25,999 nucleotides of DNA from a virus (taxonomy: Duplodnaviria > Caudoviricetes): IMG/VR virus record IMGVR_UViG_3300020381_000791, positions 1 to 25,999 of that record. One strand, written 5' to 3'. Both the position numbers and the translations under genes were made by a program. Below are positions 859-20,469 of this stretch, piece after piece (the first letter of the stretch is position 1; every line of letters starts with the position of its first letter). Under the pieces are notes generated by a model. The model searched no databases, had not been told where the DNA came from, and saw nothing but the letters and a program-made list of their open reading frames with translations.

Positions 859-2316
859 TTAACTATCCTCTCTTTCATATCCATTTAAGTTATCTGAACC
901 AAACATTGAATTTAACAATCTGCCTTCTGCAGTTTCATTATTCCATATTGATTGTGCATATAATTGATCCTCACGCTGATGAGTATTATTATTATTATCC
1001 TCATAAAATACTTGGTGTAGTGTTTCGAAATTCTTAACACTATTTACAAGTTTTTCTTTTTTGATCCATTTTCTTACAACAAAGTAATTGAATAGATTAG
1101 GAAATTTATATCTATTAGCTCGTATAAATAACATAAAATTAGTTACGCTATTTTCTTTAAATCTAGCTAAATCTTGATAAGTCATTGCAGTTGTAAATTC
1201 ATACATTGCTTGTATGAACTCAACATTTTTTAATAACCTATTTATTTTTAGATTAGATCTAAAGTATCTAAGCTCTACTGTTGTACTACTGACATTAACT
1301 GCTTGTCTACTTGCACTATTAAGTTTGTATTTTACAACTTTTGCAAAATCATTAGGTTTATACAGATAAGCCCATTGGTTATCTTCACCTACACTTCTTT
1401 GTGCAATACTTGCAATTAATTTAGGATTATCATAGTGCATTGATAGGAAGGCATAATATTGAAAAGTATTAGTGAAACTATCCTTATTCAAATGTATATG
1501 TCCTCCACAAGGTCCATAATATCCTTTAGCATATTGACTTGCATTTTTGAATGCTTTGAATTGCGTTTCTGCAATATATAGTCCTGCTTTAAAAGCTCTA
1601 ATTGTCATTGGCATACTAACAAATTCTATGTCAACAGAACTATCGTGTTTTGCAATCCAAACTGGGTTAGATCTAGTACCATAAGCACCAAAACTAACAT
1701 TTAATAATGCAAGAAATTTGAACATTTCTTTATAGATAATATTACGATTATGATTTTCGTCATTATTATATGAATAACATTCTTCTGTCTCACAATATGA
1801 ATTATCCTCATAATCGTGTTCTTGATCGTGATTTTGACAATCCTCACATTGTCTATCAGTAGTTCTATAAATTAATTCTAATTCCATTCCCATTGGGATA
1901 AATTGCATTAATTCTGGTACAGTATTATTTTTATAATACTTACTTTCTTTTCTCCATTCTTGCATTTCATAAGTAATGAATTCACCTGTTTCTGGGTTAA
2001 AATCCAATACTTCTGCACCAAATGGTTTATAACTATAATCAAAAGGAAATATACTTTGTATTCCTAGTGGATAGTAAGCACCTACTTTTGTGTAACCTTC
2101 TAGATTATTATTATCTGTATATCTCATCATTTGTTTTGCAAATGCGTTTTTACTAACTGCATCACTCATACTATTAGTTAAGTGAACGAAGTTAGATAGA
2201 GACAAAGCATTACTATTAATAAAGTTAGACAGTATTTTTTCTGAATAACCTTTATTTTGTAGTTGATAGATACTACTAGTAAAGTTATTAGCTTTAGTTT
2301 GTTGTTTTCTTGTCAT
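859..2316 (-). CDS. Putative amidoligase (COOH-NH2 ligase, glutamine synthetase/gamma-glutamylcysteine ligase-like fold)
   Basis: Motifs GMELEL, HDSSVDIEFVSMP, CGGHIHL, AVN and TVELRYFRS match the amidoligase pattern (GxExE...DxS...ExxSP...GxHxH...TxExR). Start moved from 2349 to ATG 2316, which has a GGAGG RBS at 2321-2325. Confidence 0.8.
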   Translation of the reverse strand: MTRKQQTKANNFTSSIYQLQNKGYSEKILSNFINSNALSLSNFVHLTNSMSDAVSKNAFAKQMMRYTDNNNLEGYTKVGAYYPLGIQSIFPFDYSYKPFGAEVLDFNPETGEFITYEMQEWRKESKYYKNNTVPELMQFIPMGMELELIYRTTDRQCEDCQNHDQEHDYEDNSYCETEECYSYNNDENHNRNIIYKEMFKFLALLNVSFGAYGTRSNPVWIAKHDSSVDIEFVSMPMTIRAFKAGLYIAETQFKAFKNASQYAKGYYGPCGGHIHLNKDSFTNTFQYYAFLSMHYDNPKLIASIAQRSVGEDNQWAYLYKPNDFAKVVKYKLNSASRQAVNVSSTTVELRYFRSNLKINRLLKNVEFIQAMYEFTTAMTYQDLARFKENSVTNFMLFIRANRYKFPNLFNYFVVRKWIKKEKLVNSVKNFETLHQVFYEDNNNNTHQREDQLYAQSIWNNETAEGRLLNSMFGSDNLNGYEREDS

Positions 2317-2467
2317 TATTCCTCCATTTCCATATATAAAAAGCAACACGCATATACAAATCCATAACTATTTCATATAGCCAACCTGAAATTGTAAATG
2401 CACCGATTAAATAAACTGGGACTAATAACCAAAAGTAAAATTCCCAATCATTTAGATTTTTTATCAT
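2294..2467 (-). CDS. Small predicted membrane protein (57 aa)
   Basis: MIKNLNDWEFYFWLLVPVYLIGAFTISGWLYEIVMDLYMRVAFYIWKWRNNDKKTTN*. GGAGG RBS upstream, long hydrophobic stretch followed by a basic tail, overlaps both neighbouring genes as in an operon. Confidence 0.65.
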   Translation of the reverse strand: MIKNLNDWEFYFWLLVPVYLIGAFTISGWLYEIVMDLYMRVAFYIWKWRNNDKKTTN

Positions 2468-2573
2468 TTATTATTTCCTCCATTTCTTTTTTGCAACATT
2501 TTGTACAAGCCATAACTATACCTAAATAAGTTGGCTCACTACATATAGCACATATAGATAGTTGTTTTGACAT
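2448..2573 (-). CDS. Small CxxC...CxxC zinc-finger-like protein (41 aa)
   Basis: MSKQLSICAICSEPTYLGIVMACTKCCKKEMEEIINDKKSK*. GGAGGT RBS a few nt upstream of the ATG; first gene of the minus-strand operon. Confidence 0.65.
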   Translation of the reverse strand: MSKQLSICAICSEPTYLGIVMACTKCCKKEMEEIINDKKSK

Positions 2574-2754
2574 TAAATACCTCCATATTTAATAACAGTA
2601 TATCACTTTGATATACTTACCAACACACACAAGTTGTAGATACTTATTCATTAATCAATAAAATGAAATGTATGTGCTGGTAGCTATATCCCATACCAAA
2701 AGGAAACAAATTGAAAAAACTTAAAAATAAAAAAAAATATAAACATAGACCTTG

Positions 2755-2812
2755 AAAAAAAAAATAGTTGAAACCTACACCGAATTTAAACAAACTCGAT
2801 GTAGGTAACAAC
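2755..2812 (-). terminator. Probable Rho-independent terminator of the SSB-like gene
   Basis: GTTG-AA-ACCTACACCGA...TCGATGTAGGT-AA-CAAC inverted repeat. The mismatch within the main stem is a G-U pair on the minus strand, and the hairpin is followed on that strand by a T-run (A-run at 2755-2764 on +). Confidence 0.7.
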
Positions 2813-2819
2813 AGGGAGA

Positions 2820-3200
2820 TTATTGAACTAACTCAATATTTTTAACAACGATATTAGTATAGGTAACACCATCTTTATAATTTTTATCAATACCTCCAAA
2901 GTCGAACATTACTTTAATTGCAGTATCATCACTAGCTGTATACCAAGGGAAAGCACTATTATTCTCTGTGAAATATTCTTCACAAGCTTTTTTAACTCTC
3001 TCCCATTGCATATTCTCAGCAACATTTATAGATGCACTCTCACTAAATTCGAAACCATCGCAACCTAAATTAGTTACTAAAGTTAAGCCACCTAAATATT
3101 TAGCATATTGTGACTTACGAACTGTTAAGTTAGCATTAAAAGTATCACTACCTTTATTCCAATAAGGAATTAAATATCCAACCATTTTATTACCATTCAT
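2820..3200 (-). CDS. Hypothetical protein (126 aa), possibly an OB-fold single-stranded DNA-binding protein
   Basis: Strong AAGGAGG RBS at 3208-3214, 7 nt before ATG 3200. Beta-rich and aromatic; the C-terminal KDGVTYTNIVVKNIELV resembles the last hairpin and strand of SSB OB folds. No acidic tail, so the function is inferred only. Confidence 0.5.
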   Translation of the reverse strand: MNGNKMVGYLIPYWNKGSDTFNANLTVRKSQYAKYLGGLTLVTNLGCDGFEFSESASINVAENMQWERVKKACEEYFTENNSAFPWYTASDDTAIKVMFDFGGIDKNYKDGVTYTNIVVKNIELVQ

Positions 3201-3201
3201 T

Positions 3202-3908
3202 ATCAAACCTCCTTTTTTATTGATTTATGAATATTAACGACGACAGTCATACTGCGATTTGGCCCGGAGTCAAATCAGAAGTTACTTGAGATTGTAGGAG
3301 GAGTGGAAAAAAACACTAGGAATTGCCGAAGGCAAGGAATGTGCTTTTTTTATAAGGGACGACACAAAGCTCAGTAGATTGTGATTTGATGTAGGGATCC
3401 TGAAAGGACTAATGTGCACAATGATCCACGAAGTGGTCACACTAGAATTTTGTGATTTGTGACGGAAGGAACAAATTGCAAAATAGCTTGCCGATCTAGT
3501 GCTTGTTGTGTGCATTTTTGGTTGATGCTAAACGCTTGCGTTTTACAGATTTTGTCGTAACTCACAACTAATAATCAGCTTGCTGATAACAAGGGCGGCC
3601 ACGCAAGTCAAATCCGAGATAATGCTAGTGATGACGAAGTGTCGAGGTACGAGATGCGAGGAAGAATGTAGCAATTAATTTAGAGGTCGAACGGGCTTTA
3701 GCCCTTCGGCGTAGCGGAGCCGATAAATCGGATAAGATCTATGATCTGGTTGACTGAAGTGCGGAGTTTAGCCGCAGCCGAGTGATATTAGTGATGAGTT
3801 GACTACAAAAGCTGGTGCATCGCCAAATTAAGCAAATTGTAGTATGGTTAGTCGTCGTAATATTCTTAAATCTTTTGATCTATTGATCAATAAAAAAGGT
3901 GGTTTGAT
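3202..3908 (+). other. ~700-nt branched fold-back element (structured ssDNA signal or large ncRNA)
   Basis: Terminal arms 3202-3261 and 3833-3908 are complementary. Nested stems include 3411-3424/3503-3516, 3440-3446/3495-3501 and 3447-3460/3471-3484, plus many short hairpins. G-T pairs fall on the + strand. GC-richer than the flanks and no credible ORF. Confidence 0.75.
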
Positions 3909-3944
3909 TATTTTAACATTGATATGTTTATAGTTTCTTTTGAT

Positions 3945-4171
3945 CAATGTTTTCTTTTTAAAGAAAAGATTGTGCATTGTCGTTGCAATACGACTGCATT
4001 TGTTTTACTTTGTGCAAGCAAAGTATTTAATATGATTATATTTTTAGTTATTTTTAAGTTTCTTAAGTAAATAACGAGGGAGCCTGCGACTGAGATTATT
4101 TACAAGGGAAGGGGTTTCTGGAGACAAAACTAGAGATTAAGACAAACGACGAACATAAGAAGCCCCTTCCC
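3945..4171 (+). other. Cluster of consecutive hairpins
   Basis: TTTTCTT/AAGAAAA, GTCGT/ACGAC flanked by TGCA, TACTTTG/CAAAGTA, GTAAATAA/TTATTTAC, and a 14-bp stem GGGAAGGGGTTTCT (4106-4119)/AGAAGCCCCTTCCC (4158-4171) with one T-G pair. Confidence 0.6.
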
Positions 4172-4274
4172 AGACCTAGAGAAAGTCCCCACATTAATTT
4201 TGCGAAAACCCTTAGATTCTCTAAAAAACCCAATAATCAACTGTTATTTATATATATTGACTATATTCCCCTAT

Positions 4275-4460
4275 TAAGTCCCCTAAACTTCGTCCCATTA
4301 GTCCCTTAGTCCACCCTAAAGGGTGGACATAAGTGGACTAACTTTGGCTTTTTAAAAAACCTTATAATCATTGGACTAAATGGAAATCCCAATGATCTCA
4401 ATTCGAGAGTTAGTCCAGCCCCTTTGGACTAACTTTTAGTCCAATATCGTTGGACTAAAA
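4275..4460. repeat. Iteron-like TTAGTCCA/TGGACTAA array, candidate replication origin
   Basis: Seven exact octamer copies at 4306, 4334, 4372, 4410, 4425, 4436 and 4451 in both orientations, plus degenerate copies near 4275, 4298 and 4324. An AT-rich spacer lies at ~4349-4370. The array is immediately upstream of the helicase. Confidence 0.75.
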
Positions 4461-4500
4461 ATGAACTTTGTGTAATATAAAAATACAAATATGGAGGAAG

Positions 4501-5598
4501 ATGATAGTACCAGAGAAACTAAAGCTTTTATTAAAGCATCATAGATTACAAGAAAATTACAAACCACTTTCATACATCAAGGGCGAAGATGTAACTAACT
4601 TAAAACCGCCTGATTGGTTAATTGAGGATTTTATTATGGAAGAGGGATTTACCGTACTTCACTCTGACGCAGGAGTTGGTAAAACATTTTTAGCTCTTGA
4701 TTGGGCAAACACAATATCAAATGGTTGGTCTTGGTTTGGTAGAGAAACTGAGAAAACTACTGTATTATACGTACTTGCTGAAGGTGTAGGGTACTTAGGT
4801 GCTCGTGTAACCGCTTGGAAGAACAGAAGAAATGCCTCCATATTTCCTCCTGTCTTCTATTACACGAGCGCTGTACCCTTATTTGCTCCTCCAGGAAAAC
4901 TTCCTACCGCAGAACAATTAGATTTTTTAGATATGGTTGAATCTGTGGATCCAGGGCTTATAGTCTTTGATACTTTACAACGTTGTACCGTAGGTGCTAA
5001 TGAAAACTTACAACAAGATATGGGACAGGTTGTAGCTATGGTTGATACCATTAGACAAAACTTTAATTGCGCAGTTTTGGCCGTACACCACGATACAAAG
5101 AGTGGAGAATCTATGAGAGGATCTAGTGTTATTAGAGCATCTGCTGATACGACTATACACCTTACTGCACGTGGGGAAAATGACGGATTTATTGAAATGG
5201 AATGTACAAAACAAAAAGATGCCGAGCCATTTAAACCTTGGAGTCTAATGCTTGTATCTGATCCTGAAAGTAACTCTGCCTCGCTGACGGCGTACCAAGA
5301 AGGTGTTAAAGCTAGGGACTATACCTTACTCAAAGCTTTGGCTGATATTACTACTCATAGAGGAGAGAAATTTTACAATAAAGCTTGGAGAGAAGCTGCT
5401 GATATGGAAGGTGGACGTTTTGAAAGACCAAAGGCTCAGCTTATCAGGGAAGAACTTGTAGAGCAAACTGGAGAAGGAAGACAAAAACAATATAGTGTTT
5501 CTAAAGCAGGTTGGGATATAATAGAAAGTGAGAGTTCTAGACCTGTTCCTAGAATTGAGCACGTCCAGGACGATTTGCTAGATGAGGAGGGCAAATAG
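4501..5598 (+). CDS. RepA/AAA_25-type (SF4-like) DNA helicase with probable C-terminal winged helix
   Basis: PDWLIEDFI, Walker A SDAGVGKT, VLYVLAEG, Walker B LIVFDT, AVHHDTK, RGSS and KQKD are typical of RSF1010 RepA-like ATPases. GGAGG at 4493-4497 supports ATG 4501 over 4468. Confidence 0.85.
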   Translation: MIVPEKLKLLLKHHRLQENYKPLSYIKGEDVTNLKPPDWLIEDFIMEEGFTVLHSDAGVGKTFLALDWANTISNGWSWFGRETEKTTVLYVLAEGVGYLGARVTAWKNRRNASIFPPVFYYTSAVPLFAPPGKLPTAEQLDFLDMVESVDPGLIVFDTLQRCTVGANENLQQDMGQVVAMVDTIRQNFNCAVLAVHHDTKSGESMRGSSVIRASADTTIHLTARGENDGFIEMECTKQKDAEPFKPWSLMLVSDPESNSASLTAYQEGVKARDYTLLKALADITTHRGEKFYNKAWREAADMEGGRFERPKAQLIREELVEQTGEGRQKQYSVSKAGWDIIESESSRPVPRIEHVQDDLLDEEGK

Positions 5599-5747: not shown

Positions 5748-7658
5748 ATGACTAAAGATGTTAAGGCAGGAAGGCCTAAACGTTCTGACGCAGATTTATT
5801 GTCTGATAGAGCGAAAGTTAAAGCACAAATCTTTGGAGCAAATAATGAAGTTTTTCAATTCGATCAAGATGCCGAAATTTATTTACCTCCACCGCCAGCA
5901 AAAAAAGGTACAAGTCTCTGGAAAGCGTGGGCTATGGAGTCTTTCCTGGAATGTATTAGGTACGGACTTACCTACACCGAAGCTTGTAAACGTATCGGTG
6001 TTACAAGAAAATGGTGGGAAGAAAACTCGCAGCGACATAAGGACTGGGCTGCTGAAGCAAGACAAATTAGATCTGGTGATGCAGTTAAAGATTCCTACCC
6101 TGATTTATCGAATATGTCCTTTTCTGAATTTTGCAAATTATATTTTAACGTTGACTTTGCTCCGCATCAATTTGAAATAGAAAAAAATTTAGCTGATCCT
6201 ACAGGCCGACTTGTTTTAGTATTAGGCCACCCTGAATCTGGAAAGTCCACTTTATCTGCATTGTGGTACCCAGTATATAAAATGTGTCAGAATCCAGACA
6301 TACGTATTGCTTTGGTAACTAAGTCTGGAGAAAAAGCACAAGACTTGCTTGGAAGAATTAAAAGATATTTAACTGATCCGCATTTGTATAAGGACTGCGA
6401 AAGAAATCTAATAGAAGATTTTAATGGATTTAAGTCACAAAAATCTGACGGTTTTGGTTGGTCTAAAGACCAAATAACCATACGACAAAGAGAGTCTGGT
6501 GAGAGAGATCCAACTGTTCAGGCCTTATCAGTAGGTAAGCAGATTTATGGGTCAAGACTTGACTTATTAATTCTTGATGACGCTTTGACATTAGAAAATC
6601 AACAAACTGATGTTAGACGAAGAAGAATTGACGAGTGGTTTACGCAGGAAGCTAGGTCTAGGGCTCAAAGAGGTCAGACCTTAGTTAACGGAACAAGAAT
6701 TCACCCATTAGATAATTATGGACAATGGAAAGATTCTTGGAAAGAACATAAAATATTTAAACACGTATCTATACCTGCAATTTTAGAAGAACATACAGAT
6801 AACGAAAAACCTAATTGGAAAGAGTATTGGTCCTTAGACGGTAAATGGGAAGAAGATGAATCAATTGGTACAGAAGTTTTTATACCTGGGCTTAGAGACA
6901 TACGAGATGAAATATGTTCTAGAGATCCGCTAAGGTGGAAACTTGTGTATCAACAAGAAGATGTTCAAAACGAAGAGGGGATATTTAAACAAGAACTTAT
7001 AGATAATGCTTTAGAACTAGGTGCTTCTAGAAGTATTGGTCAGGTATATCCTGAAGAAATTTTAATACTTGGAATTGATCCTGCTACTACTGGTAGAGCT
7101 GCATCAGTTTTGCTTGCGTACAATCCTGAAACAGGAGTTAGAACAATTGTTGATATTTTTGTGGGATTTAGATTAGGTGCGACTGGCGTACGAAATAAAT
7201 TAATGTATGAGTTTTGGGAAAAATACAAAGACCATAGAGTTGCTTATACAGTTATTGAAACAAACTTTGCTCCTACGATACTTGGAGATGATACTGTAAA
7301 GAATCGTGCTGAGTGGGCAGGAACTCGTATGATTGAGCATAAAACAACTGGTGCTGGTAAAAAACGAGGATCTAAATGGGACGAAGAGTATGGAGTTGGC
7401 GCTATGCAGGCTTTATTTTATAGCGGCCTTATTGCGTTCCCTTCAGCAACAATTTCTGATAAACAAAAGCTTGAGCCTTTGATAGATGATATGCTAGTAT
7501 TTCCTTGGGCGAAACAACAGGACGCTTTGATCGCTTTGTGGATTGCAAATGGAGAGTGTAAGAACTCTTCATTATTTAGTGTTGATTTAACAAAAGTCGT
7601 GTCAAGACGAAATATTCCGCCTATTATAAGAGATAGAATGTTTACAAGGAACAAATGA
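5748..7658 (+). CDS. terL: Terminase large subunit with N-terminal HTH-like extension
   Basis: Q-motif PHQ, Walker A GHPESGKST, Walker B LLILDD, motif III-like NGTR, YQQ and RNase H-like nuclease motif LGIDPA; directly upstream of the portal. Confidence 0.92.
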   Translation: MTKDVKAGRPKRSDADLLSDRAKVKAQIFGANNEVFQFDQDAEIYLPPPPAKKGTSLWKAWAMESFLECIRYGLTYTEACKRIGVTRKWWEENSQRHKDWAAEARQIRSGDAVKDSYPDLSNMSFSEFCKLYFNVDFAPHQFEIEKNLADPTGRLVLVLGHPESGKSTLSALWYPVYKMCQNPDIRIALVTKSGEKAQDLLGRIKRYLTDPHLYKDCERNLIEDFNGFKSQKSDGFGWSKDQITIRQRESGERDPTVQALSVGKQIYGSRLDLLILDDALTLENQQTDVRRRRIDEWFTQEARSRAQRGQTLVNGTRIHPLDNYGQWKDSWKEHKIFKHVSIPAILEEHTDNEKPNWKEYWSLDGKWEEDESIGTEVFIPGLRDIRDEICSRDPLRWKLVYQQEDVQNEEGIFKQELIDNALELGASRSIGQVYPEEILILGIDPATTGRAASVLLAYNPETGVRTIVDIFVGFRLGATGVRNKLMYEFWEKYKDHRVAYTVIETNFAPTILGDDTVKNRAEWAGTRMIEHKTTGAGKKRGSKWDEEYGVGAMQALFYSGLIAFPSATISDKQKLEPLIDDMLVFPWAKQQDALIALWIANGECKNSSLFSVDLTKVVSRRNIPPIIRDRMFTRNK

Positions 7659-15800: not shown

Positions 15801-16949
15801 ATATCTGCTGATTTCCTTAAAGTTATATTTACACCAGAACAATTAGGTCCAGAGGTTTCTAATCTAATACAAGAAATATTACAAGGTACTGGATATGAAG
15901 ATCCAATTAATGGATTTTATTCTCCAATAGATATAATTCCTTATTTATATGCTGCTCAAAAAGCAGGTAAAGCAAATCCTTCTTATGTGTTTTCTTCTCA
16001 AAATCCAGATGATCAACAACTTAATAAAGGTTTACAATTACTTACAGGTTTAACTAAAGCTTCAATTTTCTGGGACGAAGATGAAGACGGATATGAACAA
16101 TTACAATTCCTAACTAATTTTGAAAACAAGATATGGGCTTTAAATGAGTTGTGGGAAAACAATGACGGACAGATTGCTAACAATGATGAAATACAAAATT
16201 TGGTAGATGATGTGTATGAATCATTTACAATCTTTAACCACATTATGGGAGACATAGAAACTTTTAGTAAAAAGAATGTTTTAAGTGGCGAACAATGGTG
16301 GAACTTTTATGTTAAACCTAAATTTAAATCTTTAAGTTTAGATTGGAAGATGCCTGTTCCTTCTGAAGGTTCAATTGAAAATCAAACTTTTAATGTTGTT
16401 TTATCTGACAAAAATGTAACTGCTGAGTTTCAAACAATTGCAGCAGCTAAACCGTTTAAGGCAGTAAAAATTAATGCAACATCTTCACAAGTTCCTGACG
16501 GTGACACAATTAACTCAATGTATAGTGCAAAGGATTCAGAAGCTATTCGTGTTATAGGAATTATGGCTTATGAAATGTCTACTGATCCAGTAGTTGATCC
16601 AGAAGAAAGAGAAATTGCTATAACACAGAAAGCATTTTTACAACAATTAGTTGATAGATACGAAGGAAGACTTTATTATGTCACCGATGCTAGATTTGGA
16701 AACGACAACAGAAAAGATCCATACAACAGAGTCTTGGGTTGGTTGTTTGTGGAAAATGGTATTAATGGGGATTTAGCTGACGGTCAAGGAGAATATATAT
16801 TTTTCGGAGATCACTTCAGTCCAGCAGATAACTATTACAATATAAATAGAGGCGGAGCTTCTAGTGAAAAAGAATTTGAAACTAAAGATGATGAAAAAGG
16901 AATTTACGATTTGAGCACTTTTGAAGATACAATAGAGATTGATGAATAA
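9801..16949 (+). CDS. Very large probable internal virion (ejection) protein with C-terminal thermonuclease (SNase)-like domain
   Basis: ~2380 aa in the virion operon. The C-terminus contains VPDGDTI...IRVIGIMAYE...KDPYNRVLGWLFV, matching the SNase pattern DGDT...RLxGIDxPE...DxYGRxLAYV. ATG 9801 preferred over GTG 9795. Confidence 0.7.
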   Translation: MSDLEKRLEEDSEYKPEEQEYDGALSYNLPTPKDLTNYYPSSENVNVERYEKAILNTNGEVPSSWVLSLTPEQIDELNSYSPDFVNELSSVANYYDDLFDVENDIQETAMRRANSRVNSINWGAALGAGAGIVVPGEKPKDLQEEYDQALDEVRQEKLGAELSLFETSDKTMENVTNEKIPNNVQEGAMGNLWQKVKSNFSDSYRTGVFLGNAIFRPKSLNPADAPEEFKPESFRNPISTIVLAGKATSWAGTKILSLLPGVDFNDEDISKGEQNNISTVEAARDLSIKRFRAVSAANTFEAAMQSDPWLANEILNLPIVQGDVMKAQAIFQVMTEANNPEFMDANNQYVEAVYDATNDQIKKIVSGEDTVGEALVNGLGWYSKHIVGGFSTGVFLLSTEDGRQMANEFGLRDAVKKMDYKPSEVLGYSDTFTGNMIDLATQFGFDPTIWLFTPATGIRGGAVTQFAKAKYVKGFMSTGIGKQFADDLYKVLRDGSKLQKQTLLRNFGDRNQARLRNIVKDDVARGASETTSERFYKIYTDSLLMGDNPYVFHKTAWNRLKSQRTAKIIEKASEGDGKSIKAFAKLLTSKNISTKVNLAGPNPKRSIMEAIESMIHGTKLPEEDIVNILNGLENNLDELFEATLGGGTNFAGDAIAAARLSIINQSDLINYFEMALGRRPRNIIKNLDNNTTASGQSIRNLELDEIGEGVKNLDMPVFSFKGISEIIKKAEKKLKTLNKNNAAQELIDKQVAYIARLKEQRKAGIVKPVKGTKQGELQTYDRFDVDSIFNQDDFWRGSANKEYMQQLLDDANELAGLVPGSKESVKASAQFNKLLDDFYVQLDDVLSGAAKGRDFNAVSALIQKTHYQLMNKLDNLMMDYDKLLNTSVRSLQQNAMLDSLNNLVVKLGWHNYKRFKGGWYELVSVGDKMYDQAKAVAKGAQKKDKAAVLKDHPNAVWVENPIKITRNKKGDITRIDIDWATLKIMMNYRDEVGAASAVLRGQSKIFDRPQGSRFMYNETEEAFMAAGRKYDDQLVRDLKKNFKLPKDLPDEEVIAYVEQVRDLKRTTNQVVEGELPISPLEFALINSAVEGKNVTNVFRQLNAKGWYQRAEQFQRAWSFEKVMRPGTAFVAAFDELFFYKSIFGWKGTGKDYIFNRGVRKTLREIKKRGGINKAMNDPALADEINKWVYEALERQQKLPIEVAQRYKIGFDKNAPVELLSNTDAGFFQFAQQHIDGLLKDYGFQQYAQIIDKLRKLKPSKDLTQKQIDDMFLKGEEDWAKWFSSSDADYIKGLKLYGYKQGGGPISSVYVSLGKKAVPHQHYLTNSEEAWKYYESLKKWYTMGVPAKHVDDVWNSFIKSALERTKKGGNVNALPDQKWIGRIKVPGVKKQNGWLGQKNPLMARDSTLMEQMFGNPAWNRANLFANKAHATRVAQLESLFKSQGKQIIRAEDIGSGFGIATDAVDPRFMSDAWGMSYFDDQLFNAGYVTDNYINALAADYATSEIDDLMLKFHLSTPIGRDFRFLAPFGGPWADFWGRYLKDLSRRSQLRGNWWAFTDEKTAGNFAKKRIADVLNHLPNMRRFSYMSRVANADLAGTAANPFHSFGLGEERMQYDFSPVTFLPNGDSPMFAVNPIGGFIPLILIGTAMNTLDDDAYFELQDTIEDLFPATNFFPPEEKWKNDGLGTLGSYLAGGGVLNQTMRSLDFVQEALGMHEAPQSIGDVSTQLKYGRTENNYFHNNTNIVLNMETNWETIGDFQEYVNTVAKDARNNAAMSAGAQGVVRLGVPVNVKFTTRYTDVADNWIDFSKATGVFEDVVRPATRKLLKDNPYNEDNKVQALNDIRRWWFNLGDTTEGRAKQLVLSKKHPQIYSLTIPGYTVTELGARILPKREGKIYSEGDVFRTGTQDNSSQYADYLSEGLIQVRLPDEKVKHIIHENAAWVVDAVPVVYDRMAEILNEPEVQAAEAMAFGGRTAAEILSNADMREIYGISLASSDVKNIEDISADFLKVIFTPEQLGPEVSNLIQEILQGTGYEDPINGFYSPIDIIPYLYAAQKAGKANPSYVFSSQNPDDQQLNKGLQLLTGLTKASIFWDEDEDGYEQLQFLTNFENKIWALNELWENNDGQIANNDEIQNLVDDVYESFTIFNHIMGDIETFSKKNVLSGEQWWNFYVKPKFKSLSLDWKMPVPSEGSIENQTFNVVLSDKNVTAEFQTIAAAKPFKAVKINATSSQVPDGDTINSMYSAKDSEAIRVIGIMAYEMSTDPVVDPEEREIAITQKAFLQQLVDRYEGRLYYVTDARFGNDNRKDPYNRVLGWLFVENGINGDLADGQGEYIFFGDHFSPADNYYNINRGGASSEKEFETKDDEKGIYDLSTFEDTIEIDE

Positions 16950-18592: not shown

Positions 18593-20469
18593 TGGTTAGA
18601 AATTTTAGAAGATCAATTACTTTTGACTTTGCACCAGGAAGACCTGCTAGTGAAGTCATAAAAGAAATACGAGAAAAAGCAGTTAAAGAAGTTGTGAAAG
18701 CAAAAGTAGAGGAAGCTCCTAAAGGAACTTCTGTTGCAAATATTGTACAAGAAATAAAAAATGATCCAGTAGTTCAAAGTTTTATTCCTGATCCAGCTCC
18801 AGCACCAGCTTCAGCACCAGCTTCAGCTCCAGATCCTGAGCCAGCACAAGCTTCAGCTCCAGATCCTGAGCCAACACCTGCACCTGATTATGGAAGTGAT
18901 TATAGATCACAAGTTCCTCAAATAGCTCAAGACATAATTGAAAGTCAAGTAGGTAGTTCAACTGAAGCAGAAGTAAATGCAGTTTTAAGTAATATAGGTC
19001 AAGATTTAGAAGTACCTGAAGTTGCAACAGGATATGATGAAAGGAAAGTTTTTCAAGAAGCTTTAGATCAAGCAATGGAAACAAGTATTATAAATACTTT
19101 AGCTGAAAGTGGAGAACAAGAAAGAAATACATTTTTAAATGCTTTAGGTTATGAAGATTTAGCAACAGGACCAGGAATGCCTACACAAGCTACGGAAGGT
19201 GTTCCAACAACAGGAGGATTTGATAACAATATAGATACTGGTAATGGTAATGAGGACAATCAAGGCGGTGGTGAAGAAGTAGTTATTCCAACTATTGAAA
19301 CTTCTGAACCATTAAAAGAATTAACTCCTTATGCTCAAGGTGGAGTTTGGTATGCAGTAACAGGTTATCCTGGATTGCCAGTAGCTTATTTTGTGGAATA
19401 TACACTTCCAGGTGGAAACAAGATTTATTACTACGCAGATAGAAAAGATTTAGATACATTACAAGGTATTGGTGCAGGCAAAGAGCCGCCAATTGTTGCA
19501 ACTGTATCTTATAACGAATTTAAACAAGGAAGAATATCTGGAGGAAGTATTTCAGATGTTGTGGGAACTGAAGAACATTACTCAACAAGAGTAGAAAGAA
19601 CATTAATGGCTCCTACTGGTGATTTATTATTACCAACTTGGGCTAATGATGATCCAGAAATAAAAGATTTATTTTATGTCGCAATAGCAGAAAATTGGAG
19701 TGATACTAAATTTTTAAGAGAAATGGCTAAGAAAAATTCTTTTAAAGAAAGATTTCCTGCTTTTCAAGATATGCTTTCTTTAACAGGAGGAAATCATCAA
19801 CAAGCTTTAGTTAACTATCAAGAGTATGAAACTAGAGTCAGAGAATTAAATAACAGGTATGGAGAGTCTGCTGATTCTCAAGCTTTAGCTGCTGAAGCAA
19901 TTAAAAACGGTTTTACTCTTGACGACCTATCAGCAACATACGATATTTTTGAAAGAGCAGAACAAAACTCTTCTACTTTACTTGCTTTTCAAAAAGTAAT
20001 TAATGCAGAAGGACTATCTTTTTCTGTAACTGATCCTCAAGGAATTGTACAATTTTTTAAAGGAACTGCTCCAACTCAAATTTACGATCTATACGAAGCA
20101 AGCTCTATTACTGAACAAGCTTCTAAATTACAGTTGAATGATTTGTCTGTGGACGAAGCTTTAGAAATAGCTAAAAATACTCCTGGACAATTAACTAATC
20201 AACAAGTTTCTAGTGCTTTACAATCAGCAGCACAAACACTTTTAAGATATAGAGAGTATGTTGATTTAGGTAGTTATGGTTTAGATGCAGATCAAATTAT
20301 AAATCTATCTCTAGGATATAGAGAACCAGGCGGTATGACTGAAACAGAACTAGCTACTTCTTTATCAAGAATTTATCAAACAGATGATAATTTACAAAAC
20401 TTAGCTTCAGGTATTACTGCAAGTAAAAGTTTTCAGCAGAAAGATAGACAAATCCGATCTATTGGTTAA
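18592..20469 (+). CDS. Hypothetical structural/internal virion protein with Pro-Ala-rich linker
   Basis: 625 aa, TAATG coupling, acidic, PAPA-type linker near the N-terminus; assigned by position only. Confidence 0.6.
   Translation: MVRNFRRSITFDFAPGRPASEVIKEIREKAVKEVVKAKVEEAPKGTSVANIVQEIKNDPVVQSFIPDPAPAPASAPASAPDPEPAQASAPDPEPTPAPDYGSDYRSQVPQIAQDIIESQVGSSTEAEVNAVLSNIGQDLEVPEVATGYDERKVFQEALDQAMETSIINTLAESGEQERNTFLNALGYEDLATGPGMPTQATEGVPTTGGFDNNIDTGNGNEDNQGGGEEVVIPTIETSEPLKELTPYAQGGVWYAVTGYPGLPVAYFVEYTLPGGNKIYYYADRKDLDTLQGIGAGKEPPIVATVSYNEFKQGRISGGSISDVVGTEEHYSTRVERTLMAPTGDLLLPTWANDDPEIKDLFYVAIAENWSDTKFLREMAKKNSFKERFPAFQDMLSLTGGNHQQALVNYQEYETRVRELNNRYGESADSQALAAEAIKNGFTLDDLSATYDIFERAEQNSSTLLAFQKVINAEGLSFSVTDPQGIVQFFKGTAPTQIYDLYEASSITEQASKLQLNDLSVDEALEIAKNTPGQLTNQQVSSALQSAAQTLLRYREYVDLGSYGLDADQIINLSLGYREPGGMTETELATSLSRIYQTDDNLQNLASGITASKSFQQKDRQIRSIG
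18787..18886 (+). repeat. In-frame low-complexity repeat encoding PDPAPAPASAPASAPDPEPAQASAPDPEPTPAP
   Basis: AGCTTCAGCTCCAGATCCTGAGCCA occurs twice with a 30-bp period, plus 12-bp CAGCACCAGCTT units. Confidence 0.8.

Follow-up and report, generated by a model that had tools for sequence, protein, structure and literature searches.

Single-strand promoters are known from conjugative plasmids, whose DNA enters as a single strand. In the Frpo/ssi promoters (classes 1–3) of the IncF and IncI1 leading regions, the template strand folds back and rebuilds the −35 and −10 boxes within a stem, and the promoters are linked to ssb (PMC11541004, PMC12672017). Here we describe a fold-back element at positions 3202–3908 of a 26-kb tailed-phage contig, IMG/VR record IMGVR_UViG_3300020381_000791; the window is the whole stretch analysed, positions 1–25 999 of that record. 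[quoted passage not shown] Unlike Frpo/ssi, it lies in a double-stranded DNA (dsDNA) tailed phage with terminase, portal and capsid genes, in which no relaxase or oriT was noted. It is also multi-branched, with the promoter spanning a junction, and ranges from 230 to 870 nt across relatives, whereas the Frpo searches covered regulatory regions of 50–350 bp; it carries DNA mini-hairpin caps and an outer repeat, and distant relatives duplex an entire gene. We liken the element to Frpo by design, from published descriptions; it would function like Frpo without being a member, the source being a phage and not a conjugative element.

Structured single-strand origins, among them ssoA and the M13 minus origin, offer a second comparison. 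Like RSF1010 ssiA and ssiB and the phage G4 origin, the element is predicted to be structured single-stranded DNA (ssDNA) with mini-hairpin caps that exclude SSB (PMC8567376, PMC13037366). The ssiA loop CCGAAGG is found at 3326–3332, and the phage group has a RepB′-like primase and a RepA-like helicase. The ssi sites are described as 40 nt long and read by a primase, a layout that a separate site at 4303–4336 approximates but the 707-nt element does not, and the fold-back is directed at a ribosome-binding site (RBS) and gene. With the N4 virion RNA polymerase promoters the element shares DNA hairpins that carry GNA caps and lie on one template strand, and a proposed role in first transcription (PMC13037366). 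The N4 promoters have a 5-bp stem and their own polymerase, whereas here the hexamers are of the sigma-70 type and no polymerase family was detected. Among large structured RNAs, GOLLD and ROOL are often phage-borne. GOLLD, ROOL and OLE are similar in their large, ornate predicted folds (PMC12286853), but the element has no RNA tetraloop bias, its topology is not conserved across lineages and the window gave no Rfam match (E ≤ 1), be it to these, to HEARO, introns, tmRNA or RNase P.

That this logic recurs in several unrelated sequences, at what is likely a genome end of dsDNA phages, implies a single-stranded phase in the life cycle. If true, this would change views of how these phages enter cells, protect their ends and escape restriction or end-resecting enzymes, and it provides natural, covarying ssDNA folds on the kilobase scale. 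Our literature search yielded at most plasmid papers and unrelated work, and no account of a single-stranded phase in such dsDNA phages, most subscription journals being outside its coverage. With confidence only a little above even, we interpret the element as a single-strand promoter of the Frpo kind that serves the SSB gene, located at the genome end that probably enters first and exposed by end resection. The promoter part taken alone we regard as probable; the resection step is the weaker link.

The + strand of the element folds into the following parts.

3202–3262, + strand: 5′ (template) arm of the closing stem, holding the complement of the RBS AGGAGG (3208–3213)
3263–3396, + strand: branch 1, carrying the −35 duplex and capped by TTGCC-GAA-GGCAA (3323–3335)
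3398–3516, + strand: short hairpin (3398–3408) and branch 2, a three-way junction with CCAC-GAA-GTGG
3517–3827, + strand: branch 3, with G-CTTG-C and C-GNA-G mini-hairpins at 3530–3543, 3574–3587, 3634–3640 and 3709–3720
3833–3908, + strand: 3′ (non-template) arm of the closing stem, with a degenerate copy of the RBS

The two arms form 53 pairs in the DNA fold. An earlier note on this DNA had given the stem about 55 bp with four G–T pairs, which is nearly so: three of the four are present in the DNA fold and the fourth (3246/3848) appears only in the RNA fold. All of the hairpins listed there read as described at the correct coordinates, although TCCT-GAA-AGGA, counted among the GNA triloops, is closed by T–A and not by C–G. 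The stem was said to cover the start region of the adjacent gene; its arm does contain the RBS complement, while the start codon is the ATG at 3200–3198. The reported size of about 700 nt is real for the element, but the structured domain is larger (about 2714–4171). The inner part of branch 3 is less well defined, the minimum free-energy structure differing from the centroid.

Under DNA parameters the fold energy of 3202–3908 is −131.7 (z = −9.62) for the + strand and −115.6 (z = −9.47) for the − strand; with RNA parameters the values are −239.1 (z = −9.62) and −199.2 (z = −8.01), respectively. None of these energies was reached by any of 20 shuffles. When the window was divided into 36 tiles of 707 nt, the element tile was an outlier (−8.1 residual SD on the + strand and −5.5 on the − strand), followed by the adjoining tile 3909–4615 (−3.9 residual SD). 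Folding windows of 150 nt overlook the element because its pairing is long-range. The + fold contains 12 G–T pairs and no A·C apposition among its seven 1 × 1 mismatches, and over 3201–4186 there are 14 G–T pairs in the + fold versus two in the − fold; these counts and the lower + energy bear out the claim that the + strand is the one that folds. As the + fold is significant with equal z under both parameter sets, energy alone cannot separate DNA from RNA. A blastn search of the element against 50 697 phage records returned only three short matches at chance level, each covering 4–5% of the query. An assembly artefact was rejected because contig X3, from another study, spans 1500–4123 in one piece with two differences. 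An inversion was also rejected, the apparent joint between opposite strands being the outer repeat aligning with itself.

Related loci (62) were found through the helicase gene, and those with enough upstream DNA were grouped into lineages: A (the window and L002), B (L005), C (L013, L009 and L052), D (L014, L015, L042, L054 and L036) and E (L023, L025, L027, L046 and L049), plus L044, L019, L050 and L061. Intergenic regions of different lineages do not align by blastn, yet the + strand has the lower energy in all 21 folded regions and the + fold has more G–T pairs in 20 of them. L002 is a full homologue of the window element, with 64% identity over 570 aligned columns. Against it, the 253 pairs of the window comprise 108 that are the same, 25 changed on both sides, 13 changed on one side, 46 broken and 61 gapped. 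The closing stem retains 49 of 53 pairs (44 the same, three changed on both sides and two on one; two broken and two gapped), and in 3398–3516 three pairs are changed on both sides, four on one side, 25 are the same, four are broken and three are gapped. Within group D both sides are changed in 28 of 81 pairs, a count reached by none of 500 shuffles and compared with 2–6 in slid controls, and group E plus L061 shows such changes in 58 of 177 pairs; all these counts come from few related sequences and so are not probabilities. When groups A and C were aligned together, the covariation term came out positive (unfavourable), since their interiors cannot be aligned; only the promoter core aligns. 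The same promoter design recurs in relatives whose folds are unrelated.

The loop caps, unlike the energies, can decide between DNA and RNA, and they are of the DNA type. In DNA, GCGNAGC and GCGNNAGC hairpins are far more stable than in RNA, bind SSB poorly and resist nucleases, and both are found in the G4, ssiA and N4 single-strand signals (PMC13037366). In the window's element there are five C-GNA-G hairpins on the + strand and one on the − strand (shuffle mean 0.56; five was reached by none of 1000 shuffles), three C-TT-G hairpins versus none (P = 0.047) and no enrichment of GNRA loops in the element. Over 17 loci the + and − counts, with the mean and maximum of 200 shuffles, were 34 and 13 (10.1; 20) for C-GNA-G, 54 and 18 (19.1; 32) for C-TT-G and 48 and 10 (18.6; 28) for GA-2bp-loop-GA, so that all three + counts exceed every shuffle and the − counts are no higher than the shuffle level. 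The two GNRA counts were 32 and 28 (mean 38.7) and 10 and 8 (10.7), which is no enrichment, and C-UUCG-G was absent from both strands. With one locus per lineage (nine loci, summed by hand) the strand bias persisted for C-GNA-G (17 versus 5), C-TT-G (35 versus 6) and GA-2bp-loop-GA (24 versus 5), and GNRA loops were equal (19 versus 19). At a single aligned position the caps GC-TT-GC, AC-GTA-GT, GC-GTA-GC and CC-GCA-GG replace one another. In groups E–G the recurrent module, present in many copies, is a helix with a bulged A, tandem GA and a two-pair cap. Tandem GA pairs and gCUUGc loops form in RNA too, so the CTTG loop alone is not diagnostic of DNA. Two side observations concern the caps: L050 (2990–3700) and L061 (8960–9640) contain several stem caps each of the repeated form ACGA-CC(G/T)CTT(G/A)GGA-GAT, which may be multi-copy protein sites, and the DNA left of the main fold in groups E and G carries short, perfectly paired hairpins in series of five to eight (L061, 8630–8890; L023, 4780–4990; L046; L049).

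The + strand is both the folding strand and the template of the leftward SSB-fold gene, and the promoter elements are arranged as follows.

3268–3273, − strand: −35 box TTGACT on the template-strand side, 16 nt from the −10 position; its fold partner is TTGATG (3386–3391)
3246–3251, − strand: −10 position as read in the duplex, TATGAC, which lacks the −7 T
3843–3848, + strand: −10 box TATGGT from the 3′ arm, with wobble pairs at −8/−7

As a duplex the window thus reads TTGACT-16-TATGAC and in the fold TTGACT-16/17-TATGGT. In the fold the template passes the junction unbroken and the partner strands bring TTGATG (3386) and TATGGT (3843). The predicted start is near 3239, which gives a 39-nt leader with AGGAGG. 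Judged by sequence, the duplex-sense −10 box lacks key bases in the window and in groups C and D. TATGGT or TAAGGT is found in all five elements of groups A and C; in group C the template reads TTGYAA-17-TAWGAA and the partner supplies TAWGGT. The −35 hexamer TTGACT is invariant on the template in all five group D elements and recurs in L138; its group D partner is TTTACT with an invariant mismatch, and the spacer covaries. The group D −10 box (TAAGGT, TACGCT or TATACT) is found solely on the partner 3′ arm, opposite a bulge, where the template has TGGAGG, TTGAGG or TTGACT; the linear spacing on the partner arm is 22 nt in four of the five, and a 4-nt bulge absorbs the excess in the fold. A scan of related loci under loose criteria and without a shuffle control found composite promoters in the + fold of 12 of 18 elements versus the − fold of two. 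A consensus promoter scan of 2300–4600 was uninformative (five sites; 9.9 expected). The earlier note had offered a large structured ssDNA element acting as a single-strand origin or ssDNA promoter. We favour its promoter branch, given that the strand that folds also templates the gene and that the −35 and −10 boxes align only in the fold. The covariation, the loop census, the lack of Rfam matches and the SSB fold agree with that proposal; its alternative, an antisense noncoding RNA, is disfavoured. The outer repeat, the terminus-like box and the whole-gene hairpins of distant relatives, all described below, had escaped that note.

The gene and the sequences that flank it are listed below.

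2820–3200, − strand: 126-aa SSB-fold gene without an acidic tail, the first leftward gene (AlphaFold2 pLDDT 87.9)
2767–2812, − strand: hairpin followed by a T run just past the SSB stop codon, a likely intrinsic terminator by its inverted repeat
2714–2747, + strand: left arm of the outer inverted repeat (34 nt, 88% complementary), pairing with 4031–4064
3950–4171, + strand: further hairpin chain up to a terminus-like box, comprising the outer right arm (4031–4064), a tandem-GA module (4067–4103) and a hairpin (4106–4171)

The adjoining gene is predicted to encode an SSB, as the earlier note had suggested. All of the PDB entries listed by Foldseek for the 126-aa model are SSBs (best E 2.2e-3, probability 1.00, TM 0.4–0.6), and homologues of the protein match PHROG SSB families with E values of 9e-4 and 3.7e-3. 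A PDB sequence search with the SSB alignment gave no meaningful match, and a locus search with the protein yielded no loci and only four close proteins. A terminator scan of the window did not list the hairpin at 2767–2812. The outer repeat encloses this hairpin, the SSB gene and the fold-back, and is paired in the fold of 2700–4190. Lineage-specific versions occur in 11 relatives (L002, L005, L007, L013, L052, L014, L015, L042, L054, L036 and L044); none was found in L009 (whose contig is too short), group E, L050 or L061. Neither strand is preferred by its duplex energies. The next leftward operon carries an ordinary TG-A-TATACT at 2605–2597, so that dependence on the fold seems confined to the SSB gene.

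To the right of the fold-back lie the features that bear on the genome end and on the source of the single strand.

4184–4211, + strand: conserved box AGTCCCCACATT...GCGAAAACCC, a likely terminal-repeat boundary (core CCCCAC(A/T) in 17 of 17 loci)
4303–4336, + strand: ssi-like 20-nt hairpin (4309–4328), 4 nt and then GTG (same hairpin in eight of 15 loci; L050 has a variant without the GTG spacing)
4501–5598, + strand: RepA-like AAA_25 helicase (PF13481, E 1.3e-32), a context gene
16347–16946, + strand: staphylococcal-nuclease (SNase)-fold domain at the C-terminus of a 2384-aa probable internal virion protein, a candidate strand remover

The fold-back is about 280 nt from the box. The best cultured terminase relatives are the Streptomyces BF phages (Beephvirinae: Immanuel3, Manuel, WRightOn and FlowerPower; 26–27% identical), which also have GTCCC/AGTCCC at their terminal-repeat boundaries: in all four the repeat is 253–276 bp long, starts with GTCCC and ends before AGTCCC. 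Immanuel3 shares the rightward structural arm, the leftward right arm and the long noncoding right end, but its right end folds weakly, its annotations include DnaB and a different primase, and it has no SNase match. Among the 31 contigs that break off before reaching past the helicase's upstream side, 11, some of them duplicates, start 14–44 nt left of the box. In contig X6 a 259-nt piece (4180–4438) has a depth of 7.2 versus 5.4 leftward, too weak a difference for a terminal-repeat call. We infer from these motifs that the box marks the genome end, with the + strand leading with its 3′ end; if so, the element belongs to roughly the final kilobase of the right arm, ahead of the first gene that points inward. 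T7-type entry is the analogy for the right end entering first, and by it the element-bearing end is likely to be the one that does so. The + strand, as the 3′ strand of such an end, is therefore the strand that would remain after 5′→3′ resection.

A few distant relatives carry whole-gene hairpins. A terminase profile search of 11 of 64 parts of the collection gave 585 loci, of which the best 80 were taken, 73 of them about 30% identical; the 44 of these with enough upstream DNA, plus ct2KA10 and Immanuel3, formed a distant set of 46. In three of them a hairpin of 0.8–1.1 kb duplexes the first leftward gene.

L144 3422–4505, L118 1–830 and L181 8505–9425: imperfect kilobase hairpins upstream of the terminase (families L185–L193 and L194–L201)

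The paired gene is leftward, has 117–119 codons and pairs with a noncoding inverted copy of itself; L118 and L144 are 87% alike and L181 is unrelated to them in DNA. Two follow-up scans (17 loci; L187 and L201 were left out as too short and L189 as a duplicate) gave 14 distinct copies. In these, 74–83% of the gene bases are paired with the noncoding arm, the arm is most similar to the gene that it pairs with or to near-identical genes, and in all 14 the template strand has the lower fold energy, by 1–14 kcal/mol. This pattern suggests that the noncoding arm co-evolves with its gene. L138 has a branched fold with TTGACT-16-TATGAC/TAGACT; an energy scan of 22 of 34 distant loci flagged L138 and L144, and a motif census of the 34 showed no + bias (57 versus 66, 76 versus 50 and 53 versus 75). 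The giant-hairpin phages have a DnaB-type helicase in four of five records, and so the shared factor would be position and not replicon. The proteins encoded within the giant hairpins look OB-like by eye, which no tool confirmed.

The mechanism that we propose would begin with the + strand near the likely first-entering end becoming single-stranded, the − strand being removed 5′→3′ over at least 1–1.5 kb by an end-resecting nuclease of the host or the phage. The single + strand would then fold, bringing the template-arm −35 and the partner-arm −10 into register, and host RNA polymerase would transcribe the SSB-fold gene leftward. Branches capped by mini-hairpins would speed folding and keep SSB and nucleases away from the promoter, and this RNA may also act as a primer when the − strand is made again, which would shut the promoter down. 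An end-related source of the single strand is favoured, and end resection in particular because neither the SNase domain nor the RSF1010-like replication genes were found in the giant-hairpin relatives, the records of which are incomplete. A broader proposal, which we advance tentatively and hold to be rather less than an even prospect, is that these are widespread, probably actinobacterial podoviruses with a conjugation-like leading region, in which programmed resection or a virion nuclease leaves the first kilobase or more single-stranded at entry and DNA-only architectures, ranging from branched promoter folds to kilobase hairpins that make an entire gene double-stranded again, have repeatedly evolved to express a gene from that strand.

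Several observations weigh against a single-strand promoter at a genome end. The permissive terms of the composite-promoter scan and the relatedness of its loci count here, as do the six of 18 elements in which it missed such a promoter (L005, L036, L044, L023, L025 and L027); group E provides just TGn-TAGAAC. In L013, L009 and L052 the top site is internal and valid as a duplex too, the near-start site coming from separate inspection of the fold. L002 has a duplex-sense TATAAT at 15-nt spacing, and in L138, L036 and L054 the 3′ arm doubles as a rightward duplex promoter. No SSB was identified beside the fold in groups E–G (L023, L025, L027, L050 and L061). In the distant set, blastn, a test with little sensitivity for branched folds, revealed no long hairpin in 42 of 46 loci; the G–T counts of the giant hairpins have no strand bias, and the right end of Immanuel3 is weakly structured (z from −1.6 to −4.6). 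The giant-hairpin genes scored an hhalign probability of 0.15 as SSBs with no Pfam or PDB match, and an Atlas lead (G5P, 0.87) did not yield an SSB identity. The terminus is deduced from a motif of 5–10 nt in phages with a terminase 27% identical, and the contig starts near the box could be graph breaks.

Of the alternatives, the one that survives best keeps the fold and the promoter and has the + strand freed during replication or packaging, either by RSF1010-like displacement by the RepA-like helicase and RepB′-like primase or by duplication of the terminal repeat; the element would then be a single-strand origin and an ssDNA sensor that tunes SSB supply. We think this unlikely. Complete relatives encode RepB_primase (E 1e-7 to 1e-2) and AAA_25, and the three near-complete related records yielded no family A polymerase. 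The ssiA site has 40 nt, a hairpin at nt 7–27, GTG at 31–33 and a cognate RepB′ (PMC8567376), and the site at 4303–4336, separate from the fold-back, is by this layout a probable RepB′-type priming site. If the + strand is displaced rightwards, the element would be freed last, and it is in the last-displaced part that single-strand origins are located. An ssi-like site on the + strand would, however, lead to copying of the element rather than its exposure, four-fold sites show no strand-specific skew or mutation signal, and the giant-hairpin relatives have DnaB with no RepA/RepB match at their loci (records 37–76% complete). Beside these genes we note that 4276–4460 contains AGTCCC/GGACTAA repeats, the ssi-like hairpin with GTG and two TTAGTCC...GGACTAA palindromes before the helicase; it is a probable origin, perhaps inside the terminal repeat. 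Stand-alone RepB′-type primases occur in L065 (5281–6153), L064 (17194–18069) and L068 (1311–2192), where the AAA_25 helicase is a protein of its own and a polymerase was not found; primase and helicase each match part of a single fused family (phrog_3123). This suggests an RSF1010-like replicon in a tailed phage.

It is improbable, in our estimation, that the element is instead a large structured + strand RNA in the manner of GOLLD or ROOL, acting as an antisense RNA on the leader of the SSB gene or as a sponge for protein. The RNA fold (z = −9.62), its many G–U pairs, the phage location, the size of 230–870 nt and a weak rightward promoter match at 3386 would suit such an RNA, as would the gCUUGc loops and tandem GA pairs. 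The loop census runs the other way, with C-GNA-G triloops enriched and GNRA and UUCG loops not, and besides the window ten related loci gave no Rfam match at the gathering score. The antisense portion is already taken up in intramolecular pairs, conservation falls on the promoter hexamers, neither sequence nor topology is kept between lineages, and whole-gene hairpins make hardly any sense as RNA.

Dispensing with a single-stranded phase is more doubtful again: the arms might be an inverted duplication of a promoter/RBS cassette that yields two divergent duplex promoters, with gene conversion keeping them alike, or supercoiling might extrude a cruciform, as at the N4 promoters. The two arms do resemble each other down to the RBS, rightward promoters can be read in some 3′ arms, the outer repeat favours neither strand and GCGGAGC (3714–3720) is the N4 promoter mini-hairpin (PMC13037366). 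Conversion would not select G–T over A–C, nested branches or strand-biased caps, the G–T excess of the + fold holds in 20 of 21 elements, and the 2384-aa protein matched no RNA polymerase family in Pfam or PHROG (a divergent polymerase could escape), its Atlas clusters being hypothetical and SNase only. Very improbable is delivery of one strand by the virion, in which the SNase domain of the largest internal protein would degrade the − strand at ejection, as competence nucleases do, and the + strand would enter 3′ end first: the geometry suits a 3′-first + strand and the domain is present in five of five close relatives with most catalytic residues invariant, but the D40 equivalent is M or Q, the domain is missing from the ends of the large proteins in L138 and L144, phages that nonetheless have folds, and the virion location is deduced from size and gene position. 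Retron msDNA was rejected, since no cognate reverse transcriptase (RVT_1) was found in five related records or three near-complete ones, with the positive control detected in three of 14.

The SNase domain retains DGD, R, E, KD and R in all five copies (37–74% identity). It matches a PHROG endonuclease (E 2.3e-6), its PDB profile matches are all SNase (best E 0.02), and so are its top 50 Foldseek matches (probability 0.96–1.00, E 0.013–0.041). The domain also occurs on other proteins of 2400–2500 aa; SNase-fold C-termini with the D40 position substituted were seen on the very large probable ejection proteins P0009, P0012, P0022 and P0014, and 48% of the 88 members of one Atlas cluster, made up of 1507-aa proteins, contain SNase.

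In the window, the terminase is at 5748–7658, and the noncoding stretch 3201–4500 separates diverging gene sets, with a GATase, an amidoligase-like gene and small open reading frames leftward and the others rightward. Half or more of the sampled words of the window were found in five runs, all marine metagenomes from three studies, two entries possibly being the source sample; runs with a share below 0.2 were disregarded, and the listing showed no RNA run with the sequence, which is no evidence either way. ARAGORN found no tRNA or tmRNA. Near-complete relatives are 34–39 kb long and encode the RepB-type primase, the AAA_25 helicase, an exonuclease, a Rad52/Erf-like annealing protein, a second SSB-like gene, a ferredoxin and an r1t-like holin. 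The Fer4_15 and r1t-holin-like genes and the terminase and primase relatives lead us to prefer an actinobacterial host; bins titled Pelagibacter and Gammaproteobacteria hold contigs of this phage group (L060 and L061), which are probably misbinned. The 82-aa Fer4_15 ferredoxin lies in the late region of G001 (L063, 5994–6242). The GATase_4 gene stands beside the amidoligase-like gene in the early arm (window, 3–2349), and does so in each near-complete close relative examined. A 55.7-kb record, G003 (L067–L069), holds two related phage genomes in tandem, with two helicases, terminases and capsids, and is a chimeric or concatenated assembly. A Pro/Ala-rich repeat (APAPASAPDPEP) occurs in a 625-aa protein (window, 18760–18900), and an early-arm gene of a distant relative (L136, 7336–7761) matches an ocr-like anti-restriction family (E 8.5e-4).

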